Part shown: piece by piece, positions 12,529 to 50,200 of the stretch
How positions within the stretch are numbered: position 1 is the stretch's first letter
Layout: each line of letters opens with the position of its first letter
From: Phoronis australis
Lineage: Eukaryota; Animalia; Phoronida
Direction: 5' to 3'
Assembly (NCBI GenBank): GCA_002633005.1
Contig: NMRA01000544.1
Span: 168,479 to 232,478 of the forward strand
Length of the DNA: 64,000 bases
Notes under the pieces: model-generated
Seen by the model: only the letters and a program-made list of their open reading frames with translations
The model's database searches: none
What the model was told of the DNA's origin: nothing
Program-made: the position numbers and the translations under genes

Positions 12529-12598
12529 CAGGGAGCGTGGCTGGAAGTAGATCAGATGACCACCAGGGAGCGTGACTGGAGGTAGATCAGATGACCAC
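12529..12598 (+). repeat. 35-bp tandem duplication spanning the USP2 start codon; creates a uORF at 12556-12585
   Basis: cagggagcgtg(g/a)ctgga(a/g)gtagatcagatgaccac occurs twice. The first ATG reads MTTRERDWR* and stops 5 nt before the main ATG at 12591. Confidence 0.85.
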
Positions 12599-15500
12599 GG
12601 TGTCGCCTATGACAAATCTCATGCCATCTTATCGCACTGAACCCGGGGCCTATGGAACTGGTAGAACAAGCTATTCATCATACCGCGCAAATTATTCAAC
12701 ACTACCTCAGTCCACCTACGGCAAGACAAGTTCTGTACGTTCTAGCAGTCACCTTTTGACCAAACCACCAAGTGGGTATAGGCCACTTCCCTCTGGACCC
12801 GGACCGTTAGATAGATATGGTAAGAGGCAAAATACCGATGACGTTCGAAGCATACTGCACAACAATGCAACCAGATCAACTAGTAGTGTTAGCAGAAAGC
12901 CAATTAAAGCAGACTACTCAACATCGTACGACAGGTCGTATGTGACTGATCGTACTTCTGACCGTACACAGTCTAAGACCAGTCCTCTCACAGGATTACG
13001 CAGGGATACACTATCACCGTCAAGTACGCTGAGACATCGCACATCAAGCAATCAGGATTTGCATAGAAACTTGCACAATTTAGACATTACTGATACTGGA
13101 TCTCTTCGTAGGAGTAGTCATCATGGAAGTCTTTCAAACATTTCCGCCAGTAATCGGAGATCATCTTTTGAAAGAAAGGACTCAGATTCGCACACTCTCA
13201 TGTACTCTAGTAAGTACAGAAATAAAAACGCTTCTTCAAATAATCCTCCAAGTGAGTCATCGTTCCACAGTGAGCGAGAAAAGAGTCCAAAAGAACGCAT
13301 CACTGCCACGCTTACGCCAGAAAAAAAATCACCTTTATCACGTGTTAAGGCACCCTACAGTGAGTCCGATGAGGATACTTCATCGCCTAGCTATACAACT
13401 TCACCAGATAATAACAACAACGTAAGTGTTTGCAAGACTAACTTAAACTTCTTATCAGCTTCTTTAAACATGAAATTCCTCAAATTTGTTAGTGCCAAAA
13501 TTGTCATTTTCTGTTTTTCAAATCTCACTTTATTGTTTTAAATTAATTTCATTTATGTGTTTGGTACAATTTAATTTGCACGAATATAGTAAAGTTCCTG
13601 CAAATGTTTGCATAGAGAATTTCTTTGTTCAGTCATCTTGCATTTTAACTTGAAGAAAATGTGCTTCGGGCCATGTACTAAGACTAGAAATTGATGTGTT
13701 GTAGCTTTGCTAGTTGAACCCCACAGGCAGATTTGGGATTTTTCAAGGGGGTGGTCACTACAGGAAGGGTGGCTTCAGCATTGCGTAGGGGACTCACTGT
13801 CTTTTCTGCAGCTTCATGTTAGTTTAACTCCTTTGGAATATTCACAATTGCGAACAGATTTATCACAAAACTGTGACTAGATTAAAGAAATGTTGTTTAT
13901 TTTATCTGGCTTCGATGACCGGAGTAATTACTTTCTTGTAGGATGTCAGTCATTGTATGTAAGACATGTTCCACTTAATACATAGATAAAAGTGATTTTC
14001 TGAAAGCATGGAGTGAATGACCATTTGATTCCCTTTCCTAAAGTCACTATAAAGCTTGGAGTTAGTGACCATTTGATTCCCTTTCCTAAAGTCACTATAA
14101 AGCTTGGAGTTAGTGACCATTTGATTCCCTTTCCTAAAGTCACTATAAAGCTTGGAGTTAGTGACCATTTGATGCCCTTTCTTGAAGTCACAATAAATCA
14201 TGAATGATTGACCATTGGATTCCCTCTATTAAACTCACTATAAGATTAACCATGTCCTTATACCTTAAAAGGCATTCATTGACAGGCATATTTATTCTTC
14301 CAAAGCAATACCATCACCTTCTGATCATTTGCTTGCGTAAATAGTGGATAGTTAAATAAATCGACTTGAGTTCTCTTTTCGGCAATCGTGCATTGACGAC
14401 TGGAACTTAATAAGCGTTGCTGTCAAGTAACTTCAAATGGGCCCGGTCTGAAACCTCAACAATCTGTCAGTTCTTCGTAAGCCTAGAAATCATTTGTTAT
14501 CTGTGTGAGAAGCTTGATGAGACCACTATAAGTGTCATAAAACAATGGCTGGGTTTTGACAAAAGGTGCGGGTTTACTGCCCCTTTAAATTTAGGGAATG
14601 ACTGATTACAGTTCTAAATGGATGAAATGAGGTAGACAATGGCTTTGATAATTGTATTAAATAATTTAAAAAGTAAAACGTAAATTTTGAGTGTCAGTGG
14701 TTGTCTTCGGTCATTGCTCATGGAAATTACATTGTTTATGTCTAGCTAGTGTTATCTGAAATCAATAAGAGTTATGGTCTACTGTTCTTAACCAATATAC
14801 ATTGTCAACTGATTCAATATGTGATGTTCGTTGTTTACAGAGGATAACATCGGACTACAAACACTGTGGGAAGACTGGTCTCGCTAATCTCGGAAATACG
14901 GTTTGTGTTCTCGTGTTACACACGTTAGTGTTGAATCTGTTAAACTGATGTGTAACCTTACTAATGAGTCAGCTTACTAAGTCAACAAGTCGTCAACAAA
15001 CATTTTGTGTTGAACTTCATTTTGGGACACAATATATGCTAATATTCCATGCCAAAATTGACCCTTTTCATTTTTCAAGGTCTGCTAACATTGTATTTGC
15101 GAGTGCTCATGCAGTTTCTCAAAAATTGTCTGATGGCAACTCCTGAAGGGTCATTCATATTGACAAGGTTTCAGCAAGCATGTACCAAAAATTAGCGAGA
15201 GATCCCATATTTCAGGTGCCAAGTCTGCTAATTCTCACCCCTTTTTGCGCAGTAGATTTTTCTGTAGGTTGACGCCCAGTGCACCTTTTGTGAGGCTGAG
15301 GCCAGTTCAGTGGGCTTTTTGCAGGGACAAAATGGAAATTTAGGGGCCTATTGGACACTGCACGGGTACCACAAAATTTGCTGAAAAAGCACCGCATACT
15401 CAGGATTTTTGGTACACATGAGTATGTTGTGTATCGGTACCGGGGGATGTTGCCAAAGAACAATTCTGAGCTCTACACTTAAAATTAAAATTTTGGAAAT

Positions 15501-21500: not shown

Positions 21501-24500
21501 GCATTGAGAAAAAACTCAACAGTCGTATGATAAGATGTATTTGTGAGCGTTAAACTGTGTACCTTGTGAGTTGTGACAAGTTTGTTGGCAGTTGTTTTGA
21601 TTTGCTAGGTGGTCTGTTGGATTTTTTCTTGCTGTATTTATGTGAGTCTCTTTTTATCCGGCTGTTGTAACACATTTATTAATTCCAAGTTGATGTTCTT
21701 TCCATCTCATTTATGGAATATCTTTGCACTAAAATTGTTCCTTTTAGTACATTGAAAGAGTTTCACAAAGCCGTTTATTATGCTGTTTACAGTAGATATA
21801 CGGTAAAAATTCTTCAAACTGGGACGATGAGAATTTAAAATTTTTTGATTTTTCAAAGGCTTGGAACTTTGCTTTTGCATAATCAAGCTTACAATTTTTA
21901 AGTCAAATGTTCTTGAAGGCTAGTTTTGTCAAGAACTTCTATGAAATAAAATTCCTAACTAAAAGAGTTTTTACTGTAATGTAAAATATGTTTATTTTAG
22001 CCAGTATGTCAGCCACTGGTTTCATTACAGGACGTGATGTTGAGAAAATCTATTACTGCTCTGCTTGCTGGAGCTTGGAAATGGTGGACATATTCCCTAA
22101 TGCGTGAAACATGTCACCATGAGAGGCTATCAATGAGTTCCATTTCTTGCAGTGTTGCTTTATTTCTTCCGAAAACCACTACTAGGTTACTGTTTTACGA
22201 TTCCTGAATAAGCTCTACGAATCCGTTGCAAAATGTTGCAAGGTCTCTTGTTCACAATTGTTGTGGGCAGTTGTTTTAATTCTTAAACGCAGGAACAAAA
22301 TAGTGATAGTTTACATTTAACAGTAACACAAGTTTTTTGAGTTTTGATATTTGGTGTATGGAGTTAGGTTTTTTGTCAAGAAAAATGTAGAAAATATAAA
22401 GTAACTCAAAAATAAATACATTGGAAGCATTGATGGCCTTTAAAGCATTCAGTTTTTGCTAATTTATGATCATGTTACATTTCTGTGGCTGGTTATGACA
22501 ATCTCTTTTAAATTAACTTTCCACCATCTCTAACTATCTCTCTCTCTTTTTTTGTTTAATCCAGCGGAGCATTGCTCCCACGTTGTTGGACTGCCTCTCC
22601 CTTTTTATGCAAGAAGAAGTACTGGATGGCGATGAGCGTCCGCGGTGTGACCGGTGCCGCGAGCACCGGCGGTGCACCAAAAGTTTCCGCATACAAAAGT
22701 TCCCTCGAGTACTCGTGCTGCACTTGAAAAGGTTTTCGGGCGAGCGTTACCGCTCTAAACTCAGCACACAAGTTGACTACCCAGTGACAGGCCTCAGCCT
22801 AGCAGAGTTCGCCGCCTCCAGAGGTAAGTCAACATGTGATGTCCAAGATTGCCACAAAATTGGCCATGCTGTGTTGGCTTCATCGCTGTTCTTCTTGTCA
22901 TTATCAGTGTGTGGTATTATACTCGGGATGTCCATAAATGACCTCTGGGAAGCTCTTTGTGTAAAAAACTGGTAGGGCTCTTTTGTTGACCTCAACGCCC
23001 TCATTTGTCAGTGGACTTAAATAGTGCTGTAAGACGGAGCAAGTTTATGGGCTCCCATCAAACCTTATGAGTTCCAATTAAAGTTTGTAGTTATAGTGAT
23101 CACTATTTTTAAGTGTAGATGGCATTCATTAATCAGATAATGTATGAACTTATAAACGTGAATCGGATAACAGCTTTGTTTGGTTCACAATGAAATTCAT
23201 TGATGATTCCAAAGTGGTTGGTCAAGTGTCCTTATAACCACTTGTTTTGGGCTTCTTTGTCCAAGTGAACCGGTTAGTACCTAATGATGCCACAGGGAGT
23301 TGAAGACACACCGGTCATGGACTTCAAATACCAGTCATGTTTTACTTTGTTGTCAGTTTGGTTATATGCGAGTATTCTGGTGAGGCCTGTGCTGACAAGT
23401 CAGTGATAGACTTACTTTAGCAGTCCCTTTAAGGACCGAATGATAAAATAATGAAATCTTGCTTTGCTTTGCATAACTTTTGTCCCTTGACAGAAATGCA
23501 TATTAAAGACTCGACTGAAAGAGCCCCCCCTCGGTGGCATTTTGGGGAGGTCGTGTTGGCGGGAGTTCTTTCAGAAATTCCTATTATTAAAATGTTCCAA
23601 ATTATGGGCACTTATTTCCAGTTTTGTGATTTTGATAAGCTTTTGTCACATGGAGATAGATTGTATTTTATGAATAGTGTAACCTTTTACTCCTGATGTG
23701 AACGCTTAATGACACAAATATTTGGATAATTATGTTGATTGTTGAATTTTTGTCATTTTAGAAAATGAAAAGGCATGTCAGAACTAAAGGTTGATGAAAC
23801 TATTTTGTTTTCCAAGTATTTTTCTGTGAAGGGTTTATTCTGTATGCGCACTGTCACACTCGTCAGCCACTGAACCTGGTAAAAGGGAATTTGTGATCAG
23901 TCGTTCTTTAGCACTCTCACCCGTTTCTCACAGCTGCATGGTATGTTTGCTGCCTTTGACGTCCCGAGCTCCATTTATTTCTGTGTTGTCATAGATTCTC
24001 TTCCCATCCCACATTCACCAAGCTTTCCTCCAGGTCAATTTGGATTTCAATTTGTACTGGCTTAATTGGACCATGGTGGGCAGACCCTCGACTTCTTGAA
24101 AGTGGACGTCAGCTGCTGTAGGATGTGGTTTTGTTTGCACCTGCTGTGGACATGATTACCGCAAAGTAATGTAGATGAATCATCAATGCTGTTATTTTCA
24201 GGTGGTTCTAAGGCCACGTACAACCTGTACGGTGTGTCCAATCATTCAGGCAGTGTTTATTCGGGACACTATACAGCCTACTGCAAGCATCCCTACACTG
24301 GTGTGTGGATGTCATGCAACGATTCACAGTAAGTACTAAGGTTGTACAGTCAGCCTTGGCTTACAGTGCCATAGGCATGTGATAATTCATGGTCGAGTGT
24401 TTTCATGTCTTTAGGCTGTCAAGACAACAAAGACCCATATTATCAAAGGTCATAAGTTCGGTCATATCTAATGACTGTAGGCATGTCTTTTTTGCAAGAC

Positions 24501-29222: not shown

Positions 29223-32200
29223 CTGTAGTAACTGCCTTTGCTGAAAAAGACAAATTGATCATGATTTAAGCAGTGGTACCAGACAGCATACACAGAAGTT
29301 ACTTTTTCTTGTCACCGGCTTGGAATAACACAGCACACATCACAAGAAGAAGACTGGTCATCTAGCTGACCAGCAGCAAACCACAAATGGTCTGCCAGGA
29401 GTCGTCACCTGAGTCGCCTATGCAGTCGGCACTTGGGTCAGCAAACTGGTCACCTAGCTCAGATCACTGATTCGGATTATGCATATCCTAAGTTGGCAAT
29501 TACCATATTACAATAGTTTACCTTTGGCTTAACAAACACCTAACGTGAAACAAAGACTGTTACCAATCGGAGGCCTGACCATATTTGAGAACCTAGTTTT
29601 TAGGCTCGTCCTGGGTCCTTTGTCAGGGCACTGGCAGGGATTTCCATGTTATGTGGCCACCTGTGGGCGGTGATTGGCAGATGTCAAACAACACCTGTCA
29701 CATGAGAGGCGCTGGTAATTGGCCAGTAATTCGCAACCACTGTCTCTGTTCAAATCTAGATGCACTCTCGCATTTTGTGGTTCCATTATTTATTTCTCTC
29801 TAGATAATATACTAACTGTGGGTTTACAAAATAATAAACGGTGATCTCCCAGAGTTGTAGTGTTGCCACATGCCAGATGATATAATTATTAAATTGTTCT
29901 TTCCGAGCAGTCTCACCAACAGGACAATCATCACAAACTTCTTTTTGTCATATGACACCTATGTCGGGTAAACTGACACACTCTGTAGGGTGTCGAACAG
30001 TTTGAGATACATATAGGTGTTCTCTGAAAATCTTAATACTTTTTCTGAGCGACCGTGGACGAATAGAAGAGCTATGTAAACTCTAAAAGGTCAACCTCCT
30101 TGGAAGTCATTGGGTCTGGGATGGAGCATCCAGTTAGTGTAGTCATTAGCACATAAAACATCTTTGATTCCAGTCTGTTCCTTATATTTGCCATTTTCAT
30201 CTGTTACTAATTATTCTGTTTAAAAGTGCATGCACCGCTGATATTTTATATTGGTCATGATGGTTGGAGCGAAAAGTAAGGTACATGCAAATGTTATTTG
30301 GTTTCTCGTAGATGATGACCTTGGTACTGCCGTCCACCTCGATACGTATGCAGTGAAGAAACGAAACCTTGTCATTTGATGCGTGCTTGATGGTAAACTT
30401 GATGTAAAGGTCCACAGTGTTGATGTGATCTAAAAATTTGTAAACCTGATATTCCTGGATCTTGACGAAGTTGTCCCCTCCATAGTGGTACCAAAGTAAT
30501 GGGGGATGGTCGGCCATAGCGATGGCACTAGTTTCAAAACTTTTCATGCATACATTAGCGACAATGGCTGTTAAGGGCCAACCCATAGCAGCACTGTGTT
30601 GTTCTTTGTAGTAATTATGTATTTGAAATGGGGCATAAAAACCTGGTATTAAAGCAATTAATTTTTCTGGCTACAAAGCAAACTGCAAACCAACCTGTAT
30701 CAACTGTAGCATTTGTCGTTGAGAGCTGCCTTGCTGTAACTGCTGCTGCTGCTGTTGTTGTTGCTGTTGTTGCTGCTGCTGTTGCTGCTGCAAACGATAC
30801 TGTTGCTGACGAGCTAAAGAACGGGAAAAGTAATCACTGATAAGAACAATTCAGAGGATATAAAGATCTCGTCACACCAAACTGGTTATCAGAACGTCAG
30901 AACCAGTCTTAACGTTTTAATGAAACAGATCAGGGATGGGTGAAACAGGCAATACTTATTAAGCTCCCGGATGTTTTCTTTTCGCTCTCAAGATTGTACA
31001 GAGAACTACCTTAGTGTGGCATATTCTGGCTCCAGCCATCAGCAGGCAGTTGGTTATGTGCATGCCAAAAATACAAAAGTTCCTACTAAGGCATAAATGG
31101 CGATATTTGCGAATGATTCCTACAGGCTGATGACCACAGCTGTTTGTAACAAAGGCAGTGGAATTCCACCTTAATTGTCTACAATCAGTCCACAATACAG
31201 TTCAGTGAACAATCACTTTTTCTCCAAATGCACTGAATGCAGCCAAAACATTTTTGCGCAATAACATCCTTTGTTACTGAGGACTCGATTACAGATGAAT
31301 TGACAAAGAATTCAAGATTTGCAGCTTCTGTCATGACATTCCAGGCGCAACTGCAATGCTATCTGCCTCAGACCAGTGGTATGGGGTATGGACAACCCTA
31401 TCAGTCTATTTTAGCCAGATCATGTTTGTGTAAAATGCAAATGTTCAGATAGCATTGAAAAGCATGGCTGAAACAGATTTCAACTGTTCAATTTCAGTTT
31501 GATTTTGCTTTTTAGCTCAGAGATTCATGGTTCTTTGGTTCATTTGTTTCTCACAAAAGTTAGACAAATCCCAAACTTGCATACAGCCATGGAAATGCCA
31601 CAGTTATATCACTCGCCATCAAATAAAAAATCAACTCAAATTACTACTTAGCAGCATAAAACCCTAGACTGCCTTTTCTATGACACTTGGAACCCAATGG
31701 ATGGAACTACATTACCTTTTGTCCAGTTTAAATTCTCAACCTGCAAAAACTTTTCTTTTTTAAATTCAGTAATTGCGATAACTAACCAATAAATGGGTTT
31801 CAACTCGAACAACTTAAAGCAAAGCCAAAAACAACGCATTAAAATGTCTTAGTGCTATTGAGAAGAAGACAGCTGGAATTTCCAGGAAATTACCAGCAGA
31901 CCAGTGGGACGTACCCAGGACCATGGCGGCTTTCTTTTGTTCCTGTTCTCTCCGTGACGCCTCTCTAGCCTGGGCCAGCTTCAGTTCTTGATTAAGGGCC
32001 TGAACCTAAAAGGAGACGCAGCGGAAAGTGAGTGTAAAGCGGAACGTACGATAAAAACTATCAAATTTGTGAAAAAAAAACAATAATCGCATATTGCTGT
32101 TCGTTAACTTTCAGAGTCTCATTATGTTCCCGCACATGCATAAAAATACACCGATTGCTATTTGATGGCAGTTGCATTGTAACCACGCTAACAACAACGT

Positions 32201-35200
32201 TCAATTTCCTAAAGTTTTTGTTCAGACATTTAACACTGAAAATGAAATTCCACTACTACTCCATATTGTGTCTAAAACTGAACAATGTTAATTACAGAAA
32301 AATAACAATGCTACCTATGTGATTTATCCTAAAACACTGACAATAATTTCAGTGTAACCCCCAGACATCCAGCTGTAAGAAGGTAACATCTCAATTTGCC
32401 AAGGACACAAGTCCGTATCTACTTGTAAGAAGCTAGTACTCCAATTAGCATTAAGCACGATTCTGCTACATGCCATGTCGACATGGCTTTACGCAAGATG
32501 ACCCATCAGTAACAGTACAACTAAAATTAACATTATCAAAACTAAAATAAGAACTGAAACTATGTGCTATACAACTTTGCAACTCTCAAGATTGTGCATA
32601 GCTCTAAACTTTACAAGCAACTCAAAAACATGGTAAAAATTAATGTACAAGCCCTTTATTTGTGTTATAAAGTAAACTCACTTGACTTCCAGTTTGTGCC
32701 AGTCCAGCCATTTGGTTACCAGCCATAGCACCACCAGCAGCCACTTGGCCATCTTGGAATGGCATGCCCTTGAAATAGGAAACACTTTGCTAACTGTCAA
32801 ATGAGCATTAGTAGGATATAACGTGCCCGTATTTTGAGAACCAGTTTGATACCCATTATCCAGTAAAGAAAATTGGTTCTCAAAATGCGGGCACATCGTA
32901 TCCGACCATTACTGTCAAATGCAATGTCACTTGTCGATGCCTCTTTGAAAATTGCACTGAACATAATGCACCAACAACATAAATACACAACATGTCCTTT
33001 CTTATACTGCACTGGTTGGGGGGGGGGGGNAACAGCACTTGAACTGAGGAACTAAAATATCAGGGGGTGGGCGGTTCAGTCAAAGTTACTTTCATGTGAA
33101 CTCATACCTTGGCATCAGGTTTTTCAAGCGATGGATCCCACATTAGTTAATTGAAACATTCAGCACTGCCTAGCCAGTAACAGCATGTAAGTTAAGACAT
33201 TAATACAACCCACAGATGCACAGATGTCCACATGCATGACCCAGGGTGATCTTACGGGGGTAGTAAAAGGAGTATCATTTATTTCAATTTTAGGAAAGTT
33301 CCACGAGAAACACAGAGACAAGCAACAAGTTTTGATTTGTGTATACAGCCATAGTGTCCAGATACAGTGTTGGTTGACGAGTCGGTCAGAACCATTAAGT
33401 GTAGCTAGCAACTACTGAGCCCCTTTTTTCCACGGCCATCCTTAAAATATCCACATTAAATTTGAGTAGATGGAATTGCAAGCCTGTAACCAAATGGGAA
33501 GCTGCAAGATATAGCACAAACAGGTAATTGGCTAAGCTCATAGCTCTAGCTCTCTTTGCTCAGAGCCATAAGGATTTACACTGGACAGGTAAAAGGAATC
33601 CAACAAATAAGACAACCTCCTCTAAAATTAATGCAAAATCCTCACACCTCATTTTGCCATGGGGGTGATATGCGAGTTCGGAGTTCCTCTGCACTCAAGG
33701 TCTATAGAAGCTGGCTGTAGCTTTCATGAATAGCCTACCTGCTGAGAAGGCATGCCCATTGCATTTGGCGGGGGTCCTAGGTTCTGTGCAGGCATGCCCA
33801 TTGTACTCGGTGGGGGTCCCAGGTTCTGCTGCTGTAGCTGCTGCTGCTGCTGCTGCTGTATCTAGAAAAAAGTAGGCTTGTGCAAATAAACATTCACCAC
33901 ACAACTCTGTTATGCTTAGACACACATCTGAATTTTAATTTCATTGTTTCATGAGATAGTGATGACCTGGGGATCTCGTATAAAAGGGATGACCATATCT
34001 TCTCCACTGAAATATAGCCTTATTTTGACTTGTAATTCATCATTTCCTGTTGTCCAAGGCACTTATTTTCCTGGTTGCCCAGCAACTGCAATAGTCAGGA
34101 TTTTGAATGTGCCCAACAGAACACCCCTAATTAAGTTAAGGACAAACCGATGCACAGGTCACATCCTGGCGCCAGCTGATTCTACAACCTTGACAGACGT
34201 GAAGAGCACTCATGTAACTGGTGGTATGAAAGCAATTCAACATGGTGAAATCTCACCAATTTTGGGCAAAAATAAATTGCAAAAATTGACCCTTCTCAAA
34301 AGCTTCTAATATTGTTGCGTAAGCCTCAAAATGTTTAAAATGTTGTATGGCTGGAACTGTGGCACAGAGTTTGAATGTGGGAAAACATACACATCAATGA
34401 AAAAATCAAATCCCCCTCGTCCGCCACATTGCGTCACAAAATGATGAAATTTTACAGTACTTCTAGCACCAGTGGAAATGAAGTAAAATTAAATGTGCCT
34501 ATCATCATTTGCATCAGATCATCAATAAGAAAAACGTCAGAAGCTCCTCGCTAAACAAGGCATGACAACACCTGACCAGTTCAGGTCACACACAGTAAAC
34601 AGTATGGCAAAAAATTTATTTTTTCAAAATCAAAAAATCTAAGAACAAAAAATTGGAGACATAAGTTCGGGTAAATGTGCTATCCAGTAGATTATGAAAA
34701 CACACAGGACAGATATCAAAAGATGTCTAGATGTGCCTCATGCTAGAAATGAAATCACATGTTTCTCAAGAAAACAGGTACCACGGACCATTTTATGAAA
34801 ACAGCCTTATCAGGAAACAATTCAATCTCACTTCACCAAATTATAGGATCTCGGAGCATATATCCACAATTTCATCACAAACATTACAAAAATGAAGTAC
34901 TGACTTGTGAAATTTAATAGTACTTGCTTGACTTTCATTACAGCAAGCACTTACATGTTGTAATTCGGATAAAAATCAAGAAAACAGACAACTTATTCTT
35001 TTAGAATTATTTAGCCACTATGCCGACAATTCTTGACTCCAGTTAGCGACTCCATTTCTAGAAGATACCACAACTGAAGTTGTTTTATCACCAAGCAACT
35101 ACTTAGGAAATGGAAAATCATAAAAACCAACAATTTTGTAAGTACTGCGGATGCAAAAGGTAACGATGAAGATGCAGAAGCTGGGTCGCTTCTCGGCCTT

Positions 35201-38200
35201 TTGGCTAAGTTCAAAGAAAGTATACTTTGAAGAAGCACTGGAAATATGGAGACGCCATATGGAAGAAATGTAATCAAACTTTGTTTGCCTGGAAACTCGA
35301 AACCGTATAATAGAACAATGTTTGCGGAGCCGTTGAAGAAGATGTTTGCTGAATTAGACATCCCATTGACGGAAATTGTTTCATTCGGAAGCCTCACAAG
35401 GAACGATGAATGGTACATGCAACTTAGCACAAAGGTTACAGCACAGCAGTGCCTTCTGAAAGACAGTTTTATTGTGAAGTCATCAAAAAGGCCAGTCACA
35501 GCTCGATTCACCTCAGCTGAAGAGGGCGTAACCACCTGCAGAGTGCGCTGGCTGCCTCCCGGGGTTTCTGGTGCCTCAGTGGCCAAGGCCTTATCTCCTT
35601 TTGGCCAAGTTGTGGCAGTATATGAGGAAAAGTCTTCTGTCCCAGGACTGGAGTTTATGGGCACCATGGTCCGCAGGGTCGTGCTGAGAAACGCCAAAGA
35701 TATACCTCATACCTTCACCGTTGTGGACGCTAACTCACGTAGTTGGCCCATTCTCATCACCATGAAAGGAAGACCACCGTTATGTTTGAAATGCAAACAG
35801 ACTGGACATTTACGAAATAAATGCAAAACTCCCCGCTGCCGTGAGTGTCATGCCTTTGGACACTCGTCTGCTGACTGTGAGTCTAGACGGCCAACATATG
35901 CGTCACAGGTAACGACTCTTGACATAGACGTTGATGACCCGGTGGAGGACCACCCCCCTGAGGCTGCCCACACTTCTGTTGTTCCTGAAACTCAACCTGA
36001 CGTTGTCGAAGATGACATTCCTTCTGCTGCAACGCCAATACCTGACAAGACCCCCATCTTACTTATCGACCTTCCCTCGACTCCGGACATCGCCCTAAAG
36101 AGACCTGCAGTTGGTTCGTCGCACTCAGATGACTCCGATGACTCCTGCTCCTCTTTCATCAATTACAATTACAATTCACCTGGCGAGGGACCAATGTAGC
36201 CTGCCGGTTAGATCGTTTTTACATATCCAATGATATCAGCGACTATAGTGCATCCTTTTTTCCTTGTGCCTTTTCAGACCATGATTTTGTATTTCTTTGT
36301 GTCAGGGTTGCTGCCCCAAAAATCCCACTTATAATTCCTACTGGAAGTGTAACGTTTCGGTTTTAAAATCACCTCTATTCCGTAGCGATCTTATCTCTCT
36401 GTGGTCTCGCCTGGATCGAGCCCCTGTAAAGAGCCCCGAGTGGTGGGACCAGTGCAAGTGTATATTCAAATACCTTATTATTCAACACAGCAGACGTATT
36501 CGCTCTATATTACGTATTAACATAATTGTCTGAGAACGAGTATCATGAAAGGTACTTCATCATTACGATATAACTGGTAAAGGCGCTGCATTGGCATCTG
36601 AGCTGAAATGGAAACTACAATGATCCTTATATAACCTACAAAACGAAGGGGTAAAAATTCGTTCGAGAGCATGCCTCTTGGACTGTAACGAACAACCTTC
36701 TCATAATTTTCTCTTCGCGAGAAGCAAAATGCTCGCAATAAGATAATTCCGTCTCTCACTATTGGTCGGAATTTGGTGACTGATACTGAGGATATCATGA
36801 GTGAAGAGCATAATTATTATAGTACTTTATATTCACGTGAACCTCTGGATGAGGATCTCTGTGAGCAGTGCTGTAGCTGTTAATTGTGGGTTGTTAAGAA
36901 ATGCTTACTCTCAATGCCAATTACCTGCTTCTGCTGTGATTTCGTACATTTTAAAATGAAAACTTTGGCAAAACATGTTAAATTAGAAGACCATAGAAGA
37001 GCAAAAGGACTCTGAACATACCAGAGCCATCTCCGAGAAGCACCAAGACCAAACAGTATATAAGAGTCATAGATTAAGGTTGTTATAGATGGAAGAAACT
37101 GAATTTCTATCACATTCATACATGATGTACTTATTTTTTCTTTGCTTTAATAAAACCATAGATCAACTCTATACTGTCTTAATTGAGCAAGCCCATGACA
37201 TTTCGCATGGTTCCAAAACTATTTTATTATCAAAGACCCTCAATAGGGGGTGCATGAGATGATAAGTTGATAAGAATGTACTTTTAAAGATCAAAGTATG
37301 TGTTCTTTGAATGAAGAAAAATTAGAAACATGCAAACGGCATATGGAAAGTAGTGAGATTGGCGCATGCCTTTCTCAGTCACTCTCACCATTTGGGCAAG
37401 TCATCGGTGTAAAGAGAAGTCTTCCGTTACAGGAAGCTATTTGTTTGAATAATGGTTTGTTGAGTAATTATAAAACAAGCGAGAGAGGTACTGCATACTT
37501 TTTCTATGATTTACAATAAAGAACGTAGCTGGCCGGTCCTGATCACGATGAAAGGGAGGCCCCGCTTTATCTGAACTGTAAGTAGGTTGGGCACCTGAGA
37601 AGCAAATGCAAGACACCCCATTGCTGTGCCTGGCATGGATACGGTCGTTTGACTGGTAAATGGGAACCCTGTAAACATGCGTCACAGTTCAGTCCCCCTA
37701 AGCTTGAGGTGGACAATCTTCCCACTCAGGACAACACCTCCGTAATCTTTGAGACCCCGCTGGATACTGCAGCCGCTGCTTCTACAAAGACCCCAGTGCC
37801 TGCGTATCAGTCTCCTTATTTGGTAAACGGTATTTCATTATGGGACACAGCCTCTTAAACGACCAGCAAACATTTCCACATCTTCCCCTGATGACTGACG
37901 ACTCGTGCGCTTCTTTAATCACCGTTGACAGTCGTCGGCAGAAGTGGAAAGCCAGGGACTCTCTACCTCATTAGCATGGACCATTTCTGCAGAGCTTATT
38001 TTTTCACATTTTCATCCTCGGTACCTTTCACCTCATTCTAGTTTCTTCATTTTTACAATGCATATTTTAATTAAAATTTGCATACCTCAATGTTAATGGT
38101 TGTATGGACCCTACTAAGCGTAATGGTATATTTGCCCATGTCAGGTCACACAATGTGGACATAATGTTTTTGCAAGAGCCTAACAAATGTTTTTTTTGCA

Positions 38201-41200
38201 GTGTGCAGGGTAGTAAAATTTCTTTTATTACTTATTACTCCCATAGGGAGTGGGCCAATCCTGGAGGTACTGCAATACCAGGTCAACCCGTGGCAAAGGT
38301 GGAGCAAGCCCCTAACACTTCGCCCAGTTCCAAAAATCAGTTTAATATCGAAGTCCCCCAATGGGGGACGTATCAGATATTAAGCTGATAAGAACAGATA
38401 CTACACTTTGATCTTAGCCAAAAGGCCGAGAAGCGATATTGAGTGCAGTTTAACAGCTTCATTATATTTAGAGACTGCATACACTACACTGGTGTAGGTA
38501 AGTGTTTGATGCAACAATTCAGATGCTTAGTCAACAAATATCAAATGAACTATTTACCACCATCACCAGGATACAAGCAGATGAAACTGTAAACTAAAAA
38601 CATTATAAAAATCCCGGGCCATCAAGTCAATCAATTAATTTCCAAAAAATTAAAAAAGGCTTGTAGGTCAAGAAACGATGCAGTGACACCTGTTGGGAAA
38701 ATAGAGCACTGACTTCATCAATTAAAGCAGTGCTGTAGCTGTTAATTGTGGGTTGTTAAGATATGCTTACTCTCAATGCCAATTACCTGCTTCTGCTGTG
38801 ACTTTGTGCATTTAAAAATGAAAACTTTGGCAAAACATGTTAAATTAGAAGACCATAGAAGAGCAAAAGAAGGACTCTGAACAAACCAGAGCCATATCCG
38901 AGAAGCACCAAGATCAAACAGTACATCATAACAGTCCTAGATTAAGGTTGTTATAGATGGTAGAAACTGAATTTCTATCACACTCATACATGATGTACTT
39001 ATTTTTTCTTTGCTTTAATAAAACCATAAATCGACTCTATACTGTCTGAATGGAGCAAGCCCATGAATTTTTGCATGGTTCCAAAATTATTTTATTACCA
39101 AAGACCCTCAATAGCGGGTGCATGAGATGATAAGTTGATAAGAATGTACTTTTTAAGATCAAAGTATGTGTTCTTTGAAAGAAGAAAAATTAGAAACATG
39201 CAAACGGCATATGGAAAGAAGTGAGATTGGTGCATGCCTTTCTCAGTCACTCTCACCATTTGGTCAAGTCATTGCTGTAAAGAGAAGTCTTCCGTTACAG
39301 GAAGCTATTTGTTTGAACAATGGTTTGTTGAGTAATTATAAAACAAGCGAGAGAGGTACTGCATACTTTTTCTATGATTTACAATAAAGAACATAGCTGG
39401 CCGGTCCTGATCACGATGAAAGGGAGGCCCCGCTTTGTCTGAACTGTAAGTAGGTTGGGCACATGAGAAGCAAATGCAAGACACCCCATTGCTGTGACTG
39501 GCATGCATACGGCCGTTTGACTGGTAAATGGGAACCCTGTACACATGCGTCACAGTTCAGTCCCCCTAAGCTTGAGGTGGACAATCTTCCCACTCAGGAC
39601 AACACCTCCGTAAACTATGAGACCACGCTGGATACTGCAGTCGCTGCTTCTACAAAGACCCCAGTGCCTGCGTGTCAGTCTCCTTATTTGGTAAACGGAA
39701 TTTCATTATGGAACACAGCCTCTTAAACGACCAGCAAACATTTCCACATCTTCCCCTGATGACTGACGACTCGTGCGCTTCTTTAATCACCATTGACAGT
39801 CGTCGGCAGAAGTGGAAAGCCAGGGACTCTCTACCTCATTAGCATGGACCATTTCTGCAGAGCTTATCTTTTCACATTTTCATCCTCGGTACCTTTCACC
39901 TCATTCTAGTTTCTTTATTTTTACAATGCATAGTTTAATTAAAATTTGCATACCTCAATGTTAATGGTTGTATGGACCCTACTAAGCGTAATGGTAAATT
40001 TGCCCATGTCAGGTCACACAATGTGGACATAATGTTTTTGCAAGAGCCTAACAAAGGTTTTTTTGCAGTGTGCAGGGTAGTAAGATTTCCTTTATTACTT
40101 ATTACTCCCATAGGGAGTGGGCCAATCCTGGAGGTACTGCAATACCAGGTCAACCCGTGGCAAAGGCGGAGCAAGCCCCTAACACTTCGCCCAGTTCCAA
40201 AAATCAGTTTAATATCGAAGTCCCCCAATGGGGGACATATCAGATATTAAGCTGATAAGAACAGATACTACACTTTGATCTTAGCCAAAAGGCCGAGAAG
40301 CGATATTGAGTGCAGTTTAACAGCTTCATTATATTTAGAGACTGCATACACTACACTGGTGTAGGTAAGTGTTTGATGCAACAATTCAGATGCATAGTCA
40401 ACAAATACCAAATGAAGTATTTACCACCATTGCCAAGATACAAGGGGATCAAACTCTAATCTAAAAATTTTAATATAAAACTCTTGGGCCATCAAGTCAA
40501 TCAATTAACTTTTAATTAATTGCAAAGGGCTTGTTAAATGTAGGTCAAGAAACAACGTCCTGACACCTGTTGGGAAGGCCGAGAACTGATTACATGAGTA
40601 AAGGCAATGCTGTAAAGCATCGATGTAGATAACAGAGAACTCATTGTGAGCTTTTTGTGTTTTGTGTGTGTGTCCTGGTTTCACAGAGAATTGTTTTCAG
40701 AGATTATGGATACCCCCTGTGGTTGCTTTGTCACGCCAAACCTTACAGCCTTATGACAATCATTAAACACTTGAAGGATCAGTTCATTCAATATCGTATC
40801 GCTAGGTATATGGTCTTGTTTTATTTAACTAGCTGCTAAAGACACTGCCCAGAAATGTGTGTCGACCGGTAATCACGTTTTATTCAGTTGGCTGCTAAAG
40901 ACTCTCTAGAAATGTTTGATGAAGGGTGGTTTTAATATTGGACCTCTGAAGAGACCTGCAACTACTAGTTAAGATTTCAATTTCACTTCTGACCACCTAT
41001 GTACCAAGTCAGAGACAAAATACTCGTTGAAGAACACAAAACCCTTGACAACAGCGCCGTTTGTTCGACATGCCTCTACCACCAACACTGAGGAGGTGGT
41101 GTGGCTCAGTGGTTTGTACTCCGGACTCCCATTAAGGAGACCCGGGTTTGAATCCTGGCTTTACTGGCAGACAATCAAGCATTGCACGAACGAGTCTCTT

Positions 41201-44200
41201 ACTCCTCTGAGCTCGGTCTTACTAGAGAATGTACGTAAGGGAATGAATGAGAGCCTGGATATGATGCGAAAGCAAATTCTGAGGCTGTGCGCATATAACC
41301 AACCGTGAAATTGATTTGATAACGCACATATGTTATGTAGCGACAACAGACTCAATGCTCTGCACACTAAAGAAGGCCCATATCCTTCATTCTAAGACCT
41401 TCCTCTCATTGAATTACAAATAGTACTTTAACTAAGTTATAACTTTGGCCCTGACTCCCACCGATTTTGTGTTTCCTGTCCAATTTTCATATTGTGACTA
41501 TCAATTCTAGTGTTTGATCTGTCTGCAGTGCGGTGCGATTTTCTCTGATAATGTTTTCGGCAAAGTGACTAAAGAACAGGACTTGTACATAGTATACAGT
41601 AGTAGTGTAAATATTATCATTTGCTTAAGAGCTGGTTTGTTTTATTGACCCAATTGCAAGTAATGGTAATCAGATAATGTTTAAATTTTATATGTTAAAA
41701 ATAGTAAGACATAAATTTGTAGCTTCACGCTTTTACTTTTAAACATTTTTTGACATTCCTTACATTTTCGTGGACTGATGATGGAGCTGTACCTGTGGAT
41801 ATATTGTCTCTCAGTAATCCGTCAATGAATGATGAATGGAAATACCAGCATTTTTCTCCTGCCAACAGCAGTGTAACTGTCACCAAATAGTTTTCAAATT
41901 AACCATAAATGTACGACAGTGATAAGACTAGTGTAAGACGATGAAACAACTACTGACTGCTGAAGGCCTAAACGCAAGTTGATTAAAAGATTCATGACAA
42001 TAACTCTAGGCTCTCAGATAATCAAAATGGCCAGTGACATTTGTCACAGAAAATATCGCAAGGCAATGCGACATTCTACGACGGCATTCAACGCCTGCCG
42101 TACGATGCCTTTCAACCATCACATCACCTTCCCTTGCTTTCTGTTGTATGCCATATCCGTAGGGGGTCAAATCACAACTCTGTATCTAAATTTATGATCA
42201 ACAACACTGACACGTAATCATAGAATTCATCAGTGGTAATCTCTGCCTACACACTCAAGGTACCAGAGAAATAGGAATACGGCAACTCTGGTTCAACCAT
42301 TCTAAATACAAGTGCTTGGAATTATTGCATTGACAATTGTCAGTATACATGATCAGGGACTCGAACCCTTCACCTTGGAAATTTCTTGCCAAAATGAAGG
42401 TTCATAGGTGTAGCAGTTTCCAAAAGAATATTGGTATTACATCTCCTCAGCGCACCAGATTGCTGCAAGTATCGTAGGCAAAAAGCGTGCGCAAAAGAGT
42501 TGATGAGATTTTGACTGTGACCTGAAAAGACTGCCAAAATAGGAACAAAATGTTTCGAAATTTAATGCAAATATTTTTACTGCAAATGGGACATTGTACA
42601 AAAACCAGATTTTGTTCATATCGACATGCATTAAAAATTAGATGTTGATGGAAATGATAAAATCATAGTAATAATTGTAACAACATGCGTACCACAATGT
42701 AAAACACTCAACATGTTGTTATCTGGGGTGGAGCATATTTTAGTAAAAGTATTCAGTTTAAGAGTATCATTCTGGGTTCATTTCTAACTAATCTTACAAC
42801 TCGGATTCCAACTGTCCAGGAGTGAGCACTGCTTTCGCCACTGCATACCAGACAGTCAGTAATTCTAGAGAATGTTTTCCTGTCGTGGTAGAATGCCACC
42901 TGGTTCTTTGTACACTCCCGTTTGCTGGCAACAAAATCTTAAGCCTACCCGCTGGTTAGTCTGAGACTGTTTTTGTCTCATGATCAACTGCATAATCCCA
43001 GTCTTGATAGCATTCTGGTCATTAGGGATCAGGCCAATAAACGCTCGCTTCTTACGACTGAAGGTCAAGATCATGACGGACACCTCACAGCCGGGGATAG
43101 CCTTCCAGGTGATGTAGCCCACCTGTAGGGAAGATGGAAGGATTCGTGAAATATTGTACCTGAAACACGAGTCATGACCAGACCAGACAGGTTACACAAG
43201 GTTGTTCTAAAATGATGCGCTTCAGGCCATGTTAATCACATTGGTTGTGGTTTCACATATTGTTTCTTACCCATGTCACTTTCGAGAATAGACAAGAGGA
43301 CCATTACACCCACTAGCAGCCCTATCAGTTTATTAAATACATAAAATAAAAACATACAGTAATGTAACTTTTGCAAGACAGATTCTGCAGGTGTATTTCA
43401 TCTGTTCACCGCTCAAACCTTAAATTACAAATCAGGTTTCACGTCCCAAGATATGTGTTATCAGACCGGATGTTTACGAGCCGACAACAGTGTTCCTCAG
43501 TGCATTTGAAAAATGACAACGGCAGTACAGATGGAATCCCCTCATTTTACAGCAGTTCAAAAGATGACGTTTTTTTAACCCTGAACACTGCCAAAGGTGG
43601 GTGCACCGAAACACCAACACTCTAGCTGTGCTCACCATCTTTGTCTGGAGTACCAGCCTAAACAGACTTTTGAATGCATCCTGGTCACTATTGTTGAATG
43701 TGAACACGACGGTACGAGCGTCACGAAACTGCTGATGTAGTGGCTGGAGCCAAGCCTGGGGGAGCTGCTGCATGGTTATCTTTTGTGGCCACTTAGACGC
43801 ATTCCTGCGGGGAAAATGGGACAGTAGTTGAAAGGCCTCACTGAGACACTTGATAACATTAAGTACATACCGTGTCCAAATAACAATATTGAATTATGAT
43901 CATTAAAAACAACCATAAAGGGAATTTCCTTTAAACTCACAACCCAAAATCTAAATTACAAACAAGCCTTACTTCAGTCATATTACTCATATCACAATCA
44001 TTTCCATAGAATGATAAAGGAAAAGAATTTAACCCCAGCAAATTCGTGATGCAAGGCAAAAACACTGAAAAATCACCCACCAGACCTTCCAAACTTAGAC
44101 CACGTCATTTGTACATGCACTCTCAGTATCTGGTCATGCTTGAAACCAATTGCTTTCAAAGGTAAGAATGAGTGGCGTCTGATAGTTGATTAGAGAAAAC

Positions 44201-47200: not shown

Positions 47201-50200
47201 AATCGGTACATTTTACAGATACATTTAATTTTTTCCTCTTTATAAAATCTTAAGCACTTTCCATCTTCAACTAGAATCTAAACATGACAGACAAAAATAG
47301 ACTAAAATAGTTATTGGGTGCCTCAACAATAATTCAGCACTGCCTCACTCTCACGTTACCCTCACCCGATATATTGGCCTGCTCCAGGACACTGTTAGCT
47401 GCTTCCTGGGCCTTCTGCGGAGCAGCCTGCCTGGGGGGCTGAACATGGGTCATCGCCGGATGTATCTGACCACCCTGGCTTTGCTGATAAACAAAAATAT
47501 TTGACAAGCTACAAATACAACAATTACTCTGGTTTTGAGGCTATTTATGGTGATAGTGTATTAAGCACTATGGTAGAAACAAACTGTCCAATAACAACTC
47601 ACTAATCACAAGGTACAAAAGACAGTACCTATCATATGGCAATAACTCTCTAAATTGGAACAGTTTCTTAAATTAGAGAAAGTGAAATTCAAACAGACAT
47701 TGTATTTTCTTGACTCTTAAGATTTGGACATGGGCGACTAAGACACAGAGTTTTATGTCAACAGTCAGAATAGACTTAGCAGTTCGTATAATTGTCAAAA
47801 ATTTGCGGACGTTAAGATTTCTTGCATCCTCATAGTGTGTAACACACACATGAAGGATTGTTTGTTGTTGATAGCAATACTTGAATTCAGGAAGGGCACT
47901 ATTGCCTACTTCTAAATTTCGGTACAAATTCCTACCCTAAGTAAAATGAAATTTGTCACTGCCTCAAATTGCAGAATTGTTAACAAAGACTGTTTTTTAA
48001 ACCGTCACTATTTGTCAAAGAAATACGTTTTCAGCATCAACAGAACACATTGAAATTTGTATGCAATTTGTTCCGATTTGATGAGGTAATACAAGAAATC
48101 CGAAATCGTCCACAGAATTAAATCGAAGTTTGTCTTTGTGCAGTCTTTAACATGAAGTACCATCACACAGGTCAAATTCTTACATTTTTTTTAATTTCAA
48201 AACATTAACTTTATTGAGCCACGCCAACGAAACAATGTACATTAAGTGTTTCTAACACTAACCTGAGAAACAGCAGTTGGCCTGACACCTTGTGAGTTCT
48301 GTGGGAATGACTGCGTGGCTGGAACATATGTAGATGAAGACCGAGGAAGAGCGGTAGTGTTCGGGTTTGGCATGGTTTGACGAGACTGTTGGGTGTCAGC
48401 TACAAGAATGGTATTGCAAAGCAGTATTCACTTAGCACAAAAATTCCATTGACTGCTTGAAAGTGTCAGAATGTAACTCTACAGTTATATCTAATCCTAG
48501 GAGCAAACTTCACAGTTTTACTTGCCCAGTCCAACCCAACCATCTTCATTGCTGCCTTCCACCTCCCTTTATCTTCCACCCCCCATTTATCTTCCACTGC
48601 CCCTTTCTGCCTCATCCTAAACTTCAGTTCAACCACTGAGTATGTCTTATATAGGACCTTATCGACTAGTCTGTACCATACAGTGAGCCATACGTCAACA
48701 AAACTAAATAACTTAAGGTTATCTGGGACCTTAATAAACGACCTCAACAACAAAGATAAAAAATATGTTTTGTCAACCATTAAAGGCATACATTTCCTGA
48801 AAGGAGAAAGATCGGGGATTCTAAAAATAAGCTTCTTGCTACTATGGCTTTGTTACTGTCACATGACAACAATTCTTAAGTCAAATTTTCATGAGCAAGG
48901 AAGGTATATTCACAGCAAAATAACCCCCCAGCCGATTTTACTAAAACTTTTTTAAATGAAAACTTTGCGTTACAACTCAAAATCTGTTAGGAATTTTTTT
49001 ATTATTCACTTAGTTAGGGTTTAATGCCAAATTAACTCCCAAAACAAAAGGTACGGAAATAAAACAGAAGTCCTATTTGTATATTGCTCAGTACACGAAA
49101 ACTAAACATTTTAAAGCAAATTCCTAACAGTGTTTTTGAGACATAACGTAAAGTTTTCATTTTGAATGTTTTAGCAAAATCAGCTGGGGGGTTATTTTGC
49201 TATGAATAGATACCTTTTTTGCACATGAAATTTTGACTTAAAAAACCTGGTCACTTGACACAAAGACCCAGTAGCAAGAACCATATTTTTAGAATCCCTG
49301 ATCTTTCTCCTTTCAGAAAATATTATGATTTCAAAGGTCGAAAATGCATAGTGTTTTATATTTGACTTAGAGTTGAGGTTGTTTATTAAGGTCCTAGATA
49401 ACCTTAACCATTCAGCCACTTCTGAGATATGATGTTCGAAAGTTGGCTTTTTTCTAGGGTCTTACATAACCTTAGCAATTCCAATTGAACACTGAAATCG
49501 ACGAATTCCAGCAACGAAATTTCAAGAACTGAATCCTGGACTACGTTCCAAAAACACAAAAATCTCCCAAGTAAAGCTGGTGAGTGTGGTCATGTGCTTT
49601 GCTTACAATGAACGGTGATATCACACTAAGCCTTGAGTGATGTTGCCTTTTTGCGAGATTCTCGCTACCCAGTTAGATAGGCTAAGCGGATTTCTTTCCC
49701 GTTCAAACAGCACGCGTACAGGTGCAACTTACCTGTAGACACTACAGAGGGACTCGAGTGCTTGACAACGTTCTGTTTATCATCCTGATCTGGCGCCGGA
49801 CTCGGTGCTCGCTCTATAACGAGAAAAGAATTATTTTAAGACAATGTCACTTAGCCACACAAAAACAACTTGCACGGCAAATTCCGTACCTGTCATGCTA
49901 TATCATTTCTAGTTTGTAAACTCTCAAACCCGACAACCAGTGAGCTCGGTGCATCTGCTAGGCCAAACGGCAAAGACGTTTTCATTGGTGGTTGGCTGCC
50001 AATGAGATTTCACTTGTTTTGGCAACTGATTTGACTCCCAAACCAATCAAATGTGTGTGTGTATTGATGTAGGTAAGGACAAGGAATCAAGAGATAAGTC
50101 AACAGAATATCAACGCTAAGTGTTACGGAATTTCATTCAACCACATGAAGTACTGAAGTGGAAAAATAAAACCTGGCACTTAGCATTATTTGCCAGTGAC

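Follow-up and report, generated by a model that had tools for sequence, protein, structure and literature searches.

Keno is a U2-specific element of the Tx1 group with an endonuclease of the apurinic/apyrimidinic (APE) type, reported from frogs, fish, lancelet, and hydra (PMC4640811, PMC4494074), and its insertion site is nucleotide (nt) 37 of the gene for U2 small nuclear RNA (snRNA) in published numbering (PMC6136364). Utopia is a single open reading frame (ORF) with a restriction-like endonuclease, has 5'-less U2 pseudogenes at its 3' junctions, and includes some families that are weakly specific (PMC4640811). U2-derived heads are also found on Tx1-11_Crp, a crocodilian Tx1-Mar element, in the account of which the transcription of U2-headed elements is left open and flanking promoters are proposed (PMC4494074), and on SINEU, a short (<500 bp) noncoding retroposon with a U1 or U2 head and a poly(A) tail that has been reported from crocodilians only (PMC4494074). 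Elsewhere, transcription of U2-headed elements is described as undemonstrated (PMC5786205). R2 in 28S rDNA uses the promoter of its target gene and has a structured 5' end, with a ribozyme that cuts it from the long cotranscript (PMC4494074, PMC5035012). Here, we describe a copy of a Keno-like element from Phoronis australis, found in a stretch of 64,000 nt (hereafter, the window; assembly GCA_002633005.1, contig NMRA01000544.1, positions 168,479 to 232,478 of the forward strand), which begins with a 38-base U2 head that appears to have no U2 promoter in front of it. With some reservation, we think it probable that this head arrived in the element's own RNA, whose transcription would have started at a U2 gene's promoter with a source copy inside that gene. 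The parts of the copy that bear on this are as follows (window positions, here and throughout).

35185..35221, plus strand: U2-derived head, U2 nt 1/2-38 (U2 alignment, with the end placed from the loose end of a paralog)
35222..35236, plus strand: the element's first 15 nt, an antisense block (antisense to U2 nt 27-35 plus nt 4-9, 14/15)
35246..36199, plus strand: ORF1, 317 codons, open (ORF calling, Pfam, relatives)
36170..36863, plus strand: ORF2 remnant, made up of the last part of an APE-type endonuclease plus the linker that comes after it, interrupted by frameshifts and stops (Exo_endo_phos E 0.03, weak; homology to ORF2 of metagenome loci L003 and L007)

The original prediction, made from the letters of the window, gave 24 nt identical to U2 nt 2-25, and this is exact (35186-35209). 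The match extends to nt 32 (35186-35216, 30/31, E 6e-10 in a search against the window), and its sole mismatch is at 35210 (U2 A26). At 35185 there is a G in the place of U2 A1, and 35217-35221 is a decayed version of U2 nt 33-38 that is 1 nt shorter. The predicted distance of 60 nt from 35186 to the ATG of ORF1, at 35246, is also correct. Similarity had been said to fade after AGTA (about nt 39), at the insertion point of Keno and Utopia. The joint does fall at the published Keno site, but we place it one base earlier, at nt 38, because the loose end of a paralog with an intact head (found in DNA run X1; see below) stops there; the U2 of the window has one more A than the Rfam consensus, so that nt 38 here is nt 37 in published numbering. 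Utopia, on the other hand, is excluded by the APE-type endonuclease and the separate ORF1. The junction of flank, head, and ORF1 is genuine in the DNA of the species, given that one unbranched contig from run X1 covers 33868-35601; contigs from DNA run X3 end between 35198 and 35215, in the head. Read in frame from the head into ORF1, the sequence meets a stop at 35228-35230.

Going by insertion site and ORF layout, the copy is a Keno-like Tx1 retrotransposon and a new member of an already known kind; its placement in the clade is provisional, the reverse transcriptase (RT) being missing. Keno has a separate ORF1 with zinc knuckles. The ORF1 found here has two weak zinc-knuckle matches (zf-CCHC E 0.008, below the cut-off), and a full protein search returned 1145 relatives at E ≤ 0.001, all of them unnamed, where a word-based search gave one distant match. 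The last codons of ORF1 were likely altered by an internal deletion that runs into ORF2. The N-terminal endonuclease part of ORF2 is deleted, and the N- and C-terminal pieces of Exo_endo_phos that can be matched are weak (E 0.004 and 0.03, below the cut-off). The remnant aligns with residues 238-415 of the L003 ORF2, as well as with the ORF2 of L007. Because it stops at L003 residue 415, and the RT motif YADD of L003 is at about residue 686, the window does not contain the RT. A tandem array of U2 genes cuts the element off at 36864. With ORF2 broken, an internal deletion, and the 3' end cut, the copy is dead.

In common with Keno are the APE-type endonuclease remnant, the separate ORF1 with weak zinc knuckles, and the 5' joint 37 nt into U2 (published numbering). 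A candidate for a Keno-type 3' junction, consisting of an A-tail and the U2 remainder, is seen in the neighboring array, although in an inverted arrangement. What sets this copy apart from Keno is the lack of a recognizable U2 promoter upstream and of a 3' end. As in Tx1-11_Crp and SINEU, a U2-derived head stands on a Tx1 element outside U2 genes; those elements target a Mariner transposon, whereas this family still has U2 junctions, which offer the U2 promoter as a source. SINEU itself was ruled out, as the head leads into a 317-codon ORF1 and an ORF2 remnant. Utopia shares the U2 site and the 5'-less U2 pseudogenes that mark 3' junctions, but has one ORF where there are an ORF1 and an APE-type ORF2 here.

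The two intact U2 genes of the window both have, at -65, the 14-mer resembling a proximal sequence element (PSE) that had been predicted for them, and nowhere else in the window does a match to it exceed 12/14. Ahead of the head, the closest match within 300 nt is 9/14 (at -143), and near the expected register it is 7/14. The accompanying claim that no PSE precedes the head thus stands insofar as no clear one is found, but the flank does have a faint resemblance to the U2 flank. Over 80 nt, the two match in 44 of 80 columns (for random segments of the window, the mean is 41 and the 95th percentile is 46). For flanks of 80, 150, and 300 nt, gapped alignment to the U2 flank gives P 0.061, 0.035, and 0.069 against genomic segments and P 0.023, 0.012, and 0.016 against shuffles, and ungapped tests give P 0.24, 0.20, and 0.40 (in each series the three tests overlap one another). 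Judging from these comparisons, the flank appears to lack a recognizable U2 promoter; a very old one is possible, the resemblance being borderline. The upstream flanks of the two U2 genes are identical over about 105 nt, and the resemblance of this copy to U2 steps from 30/31 in the head to 44/80 (chance level) in the flank, with the break at +1. In X1 the flank, which is intron DNA, has single-copy depth (49.8, over 34976-35269 in one contig), and it is single-copy in X3 too, so no abundant transposon is indicated at the site (only one flank is readable at length). No exact copies of at least 8 bases of the flank end were found within 35250-43000.

Three other copies of the family were seen in the species: a paralog in the U2 array, the paralog in X1, and a copy represented in reads of RNA run X5. 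The contig of the X1 paralog is also present in X3, its ORF1 is about 85% alike (43 differences in 282 nt; by codon position, those listed are 8/5/19), and its loose end consists of U2 nt 5-13, a gap, and nt 22-38, followed by the same 5' untranslated region (UTR). The branch-site sequence is intact in this head, which rules out the idea that it is deleted in every head. In the X5-read copy the head starts at U2 nt 10, behind a flank that is absent from the window (three RNA reads). We dropped the missing 1-nt gap of these reads as a change shared with the copy described here (a 49-nt read needs at least six differences, and three are listed). All three copies have U2 head sequence, so the finding that would have told against the original prediction, full-length copies without the U2 leader, was not made. 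A U2 head on all copies is also expected from plain insertion into U2 genes, however, and therefore does not on its own discriminate between the readings.

Relatives in metagenome contigs also bear on the flank. A pattern for U2 heads that leave U2 at nt 38-42 yielded 81 loci with 92 heads, 15 of which have an ORF1-profile match downstream (in one, L040, from flanking DNA). At L052 there is a whole 2-kb related element, with ORF1 only (534 aa; ORF1 E 3e-15) and both junctions present, that sits between U2 nt 1-38 and an A-tail followed by U2 from nt 37 onward. Its 3' flank starts at U2 nt 36/37 of 193 (a 2-3 nt overlap with the 5' joint), which differs from Keno in being slightly before the published 3' target start. 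The upstream flank of L052 is that of an intact U2 gene in L045, where one intact and one interrupted U2 gene are found behind the same flank. At L003, an intact ORF2 (at least 822 aa) begins almost immediately after U2 nt 1-38, with no ORF1.

Comparison of upstream flanks across U2-headed copies, which had been proposed together with the prediction, was possible for 11 related loci with 80 nt of flank (one per distinct locus), and its outcome is divided. In nine of them the flank is common (65-78 of 80) though the elements differ, and we take this flank to be the U2 promoter. In the remaining two, L047 and L002, the flank is unrelated (29-44 of 80) and the head starts at +1. L002, which is related to L075 (69% in translation), has G for A1, as does the copy in the window; L047 is of the same family as L006, which has the common flank. 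Going by these flanks, location behind a U2 promoter appears to be the usual state among relatives, and a promoterless head from +1 the minority state.

The element's own 5' end also bears on the leader. In the predicted fold of 35185-35260, the first bases of the element pair with the head around stem-loop I (z -2.1). When random 15-mers were compared with any of 1786 two-block templates, 0/3000 reached 14, although this test was designed post hoc, after the fold was known. With an intact U2 head substituted, the fold-back energy has P 0.02, and 1/77 downstream windows is as good. For relatives, the test was alignment of the first 40 nt to the reverse complement of U2 nt 1-38, with a pass at P ≤ 0.05. 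Seven of the 10 loci with a direct ORF1-profile match pass, and 12/16 do so if loci added by relatedness are included (L003, L047, L035, L081, L002, and L054; the likeness of L081 includes the tested bases), versus 0/6 Utopia-like loci and 0/17 other truncated heads (0/23 controls). By folding energy, the counts are 5/10 for direct matches, 10/16 with the added loci, and 0/23 for controls. In forming these groups we excluded, by eye, loci that were duplicates, U2 genes that were intact or nearly so, and some of the repeated heads. The loci that fail the antisense test are L052, L020, L031, and L003. From one family to another, UTRs are mostly 44-70% alike past nt 40, and the antisense block therefore outlasts its surroundings. 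Among transitions in the alignments that pass, 14 keep a G-U pair and 5 break a pair (these are not independent).

We infer from this pattern that selection on RNA pairing would be what keeps the block, which may have originated by snap-back copying at a junction. If it is kept by selection, the block would be a sign that the leader belongs to the element RNA. A broader proposal, which we offer tentatively and regard as possible, is that Keno-type elements borrow the U2 promoter and start, keep the 38-nt leader, and have evolved an antisense block that folds over the leader and hides parts of it that we take to be the U6-pairing and branch-site regions of U2. The hybrid RNA would then neither disturb splicing nor be handled as an snRNA, and different lineages would use different blocks. 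If true, this would be a small, testable device for carrying the end of a spliceosomal RNA harmlessly, and it would be relevant to efforts to turn rebuilt U2-specific retrotransposons into insertion tools. The antisense 5' block may be a further difference from Keno, as none is mentioned in the excerpted descriptions (PMC4640811, PMC4494074, PMC6136364). A fold-back at the Keno 5' end is likewise not described in the titles and abstract openings that were found, a scope that does not extend to the original Keno paper, figures, or junction supplements, so that it may already be in print.

The U2 array beside the copy contains a second, older record of the same family, and lies with the copy in an intron of a host gene.

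33862..42948, minus strand: intron of a MED25-like gene (9.1 kb), holding the element and the U2 array (GT/AG ends in matching phase; Pfam)
36864..40614, no strand assigned: two tandem units of ~1.87 kb, 94% alike (36864-38737 and 38726-40614; window self-comparison)
38245..38437, minus strand: U2 snRNA gene a, intact (Rfam; PSE-like 14-mer)
40112..40304, minus strand: U2 snRNA gene b, intact (Rfam; PSE-like 14-mer)
37183..37285, minus strand: decayed U2 pseudogene without the 5' part (match nt 43-138, E 8e-11)
39050..39153, minus strand: decayed U2 pseudogene of the second unit (E 2.5e-8)
37281..37348, plus strand, repeated at 39149-39223: remnant of a second, older U2 head (U2 nt ~14-32), leading into the same 5' UTR and the beginning of ORF1 (scores 57 and 64, versus maxima of 37 and 39 in 300 shuffles)
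37374..38190, plus strand, repeated at 39229-40060: decayed ORF1 paralog and endonuclease start (alignment to ORF1)

Summed contig depth is higher over the array, suggesting more units than the two assembled. The array and its MED25-like host gene are on the same strand (minus). Pfam Med25 is found in three upstream exons of this gene, and we infer that the downstream exon is part of it as well. A short run of A and GTA comes before each U2 pseudogene of the array, as at the 3' junction of L052, and each pseudogene is joined head to head with the array paralog, in an inverted arrangement. As read from the sequence, this pair would be the residue of a U2-targeting insertion after rearrangement; either twin priming or a later inversion or deletion may have produced the inverted arrangement, the two fitting equally. 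Mismatches between the array paralog and ORF1 fall at codon positions 1/2/3 in a 69/45/110 pattern, which indicates that the paralog lineage diverged while active.

The course of events that we favor for the promoterless head would be as follows. A source copy at U2 nt 38 would be transcribed from the U2 promoter, giving an RNA that consists of U2(1-38) and the element, and complete reverse transcription would copy the leader along. Inside a U2 gene such a leader would be indistinguishable from the target, but at a promoterless site it would be seen as a head that starts from +1. The first 15-30 bases of the element are predicted to pair with the leader and to cover the U2 parts used in splicing. 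Later deletions would have taken part of ORF2 and everything 3' of 36863. The proposed reliance on the target-gene promoter and the predicted structure at the 5' end are likenesses to R2. The difference is that R2 is cut from a long cotranscript by its ribozyme: with the U2 start site 38 nt from the joint here, cutting would be unnecessary, and the leader would be retained. Source copies located behind U2 promoters, together with stray copies from +1, would be a simple answer to how U1- or U2-headed elements are transcribed even though the promoters of snRNA genes are upstream of the transcribed part, the question raised in PMC4494074. The original prediction had this same reading, a transcript from a U2 promoter with the U2 leader as its 5' UTR, and the match from the start of U2, the U2-headed paralogs, the relatives behind U2-type flanks, and the antisense block are in its favor, as support from sequence comparison.

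Several observations weigh against it. The likeness of the flank to a U2 promoter is borderline (P 0.03-0.07) rather than absent; the flank common to nine relatives is putatively a U2 promoter, with no intact U2 gene of their group to compare it with; and the X5-read copy is known from three reads of one run, and is in no DNA contig. In three RNA runs of the species (X5, X6, and X7, about a fifth of each being read), neither a U2-ORF1 transcript, the chimera that had been suggested as a check, nor a start peak was found, at a coverage of 0-5 reads over the head and ORF1. No sense transcript from the head was seen, as nearly all of the element reads have a plus-strand first mate; in a library of the usual stranded kind (the direction of this one is uncalibrated), they would be minus-strand host pre-mRNA. 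This copy is without sign of expression. Its fold-back is not significant in the plain tests (shuffle P 0.125 by energy, with the decayed head, and 0.11 by single-block alignment), the array remnants have none (P 0.48 and 0.76), nor does L052, the closest ORF1 relative (P 0.85 and 0.52), and the related loci are not independent, representing only two or three UTR lineages. The 3' junction, with any target-site duplication, is gone with the cut at 36864. Finally, the copy adjoins the U2 array, which would be a rare outcome for random off-target insertion.

This last point is in favor of a rival explanation, in which the head would be the left half of a copy of the U2 gene that lay at the cluster's edge and was hit on target; the promoter of that copy would have diverged or been replaced later, and its right half would have been lost with the deletion at 36864. 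The array does contain both halves of an earlier on-target hit, and the flank has a borderline resemblance to a U2 promoter. We nonetheless consider this explanation unlikely, given a head that is 97% like U2 next to a flank at chance level, with the step at +1, when working U2 flanks stay alike (the identical ~105 nt in the window, and 65-78 of 80 among related loci). Alternatively, the element may have inserted on target into a processed U2 pseudogene, which would start at +1 and be promoterless by origin. Truncated U2 retrocopies are common (L029 is an example), and U2 is listed among tailless retropseudogenes (PMC5322556), but the pseudogene would have to span the cut site and lie by chance beside the array, and the head that starts at nt 10 and the antisense block would be left unexplained; we find this improbable.

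It is also conceivable that the head is a one-off chimera, formed when reverse transcriptase, while copying the element RNA, changed template to free U2 snRNA. Chimeras of snRNA and long interspersed elements made by such template switching have been described, and they also begin at +1 (PMC4494074). A single accident of this kind sits poorly with the recurrence of the joint at one place, the Keno site, both among the copies here and among relatives, and with a Keno-type 3' junction next door in the array, and we give it very little weight. Transcription of the source copy from a U2 promoter thus remains the explanation that we prefer.

Some of the other metagenome loci found with the U2-head pattern are of different kinds. 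L040 (a 1003-nt contig) has two tandem elements of ~330 nt, each headed by U2 nt 1-40 and ending in a poly(A) tail, with no U2 remainder after it, set in zinc-knuckle coding DNA; they have a SINEU-type look. At L029, U2 nt 1-38 is found between 13-nt direct repeats, as a tailless retrocopy, and a 651-aa ORF begins ~550 nt downstream. In eight loci (L008, L009, L023, L032, L034, L048, L064, and L066) the U2 head leads into one long ORF, which in several of them has an N-terminal Cys/His motif. They are likely Utopia 5' junctions, some with partly duplicated heads. In another eight (L001, L010, L028, L037, L043, L044, L053, and L058) there is a repeated element in which U2 nt 3-40 is found between conserved non-U2 flanks, and in L043/L044 this is present twice, in inverted orientation.

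Elsewhere in the window, ubiquitin-specific protease exons are found at 12576-13541 and 22517-22975 (plus strand; the second has a Pfam UCH match), and their gene and the MED25-like gene are convergent. A 157-codon frame at 30197-30670 (minus strand) resembles a retroelement RT remnant, although Pfam gives nothing for it at E 0.01. At 34241-34290 there is a short high-copy repeat. A tRNA-like sequence at 41095-41166 (plus strand), below the Rfam cut-off (E 3.1), is likely the head of a short interspersed element. There is also a 700-nt imperfect palindrome at 48713-49407, and a near-perfect tandem duplication of 269 nt at 57299-57837.

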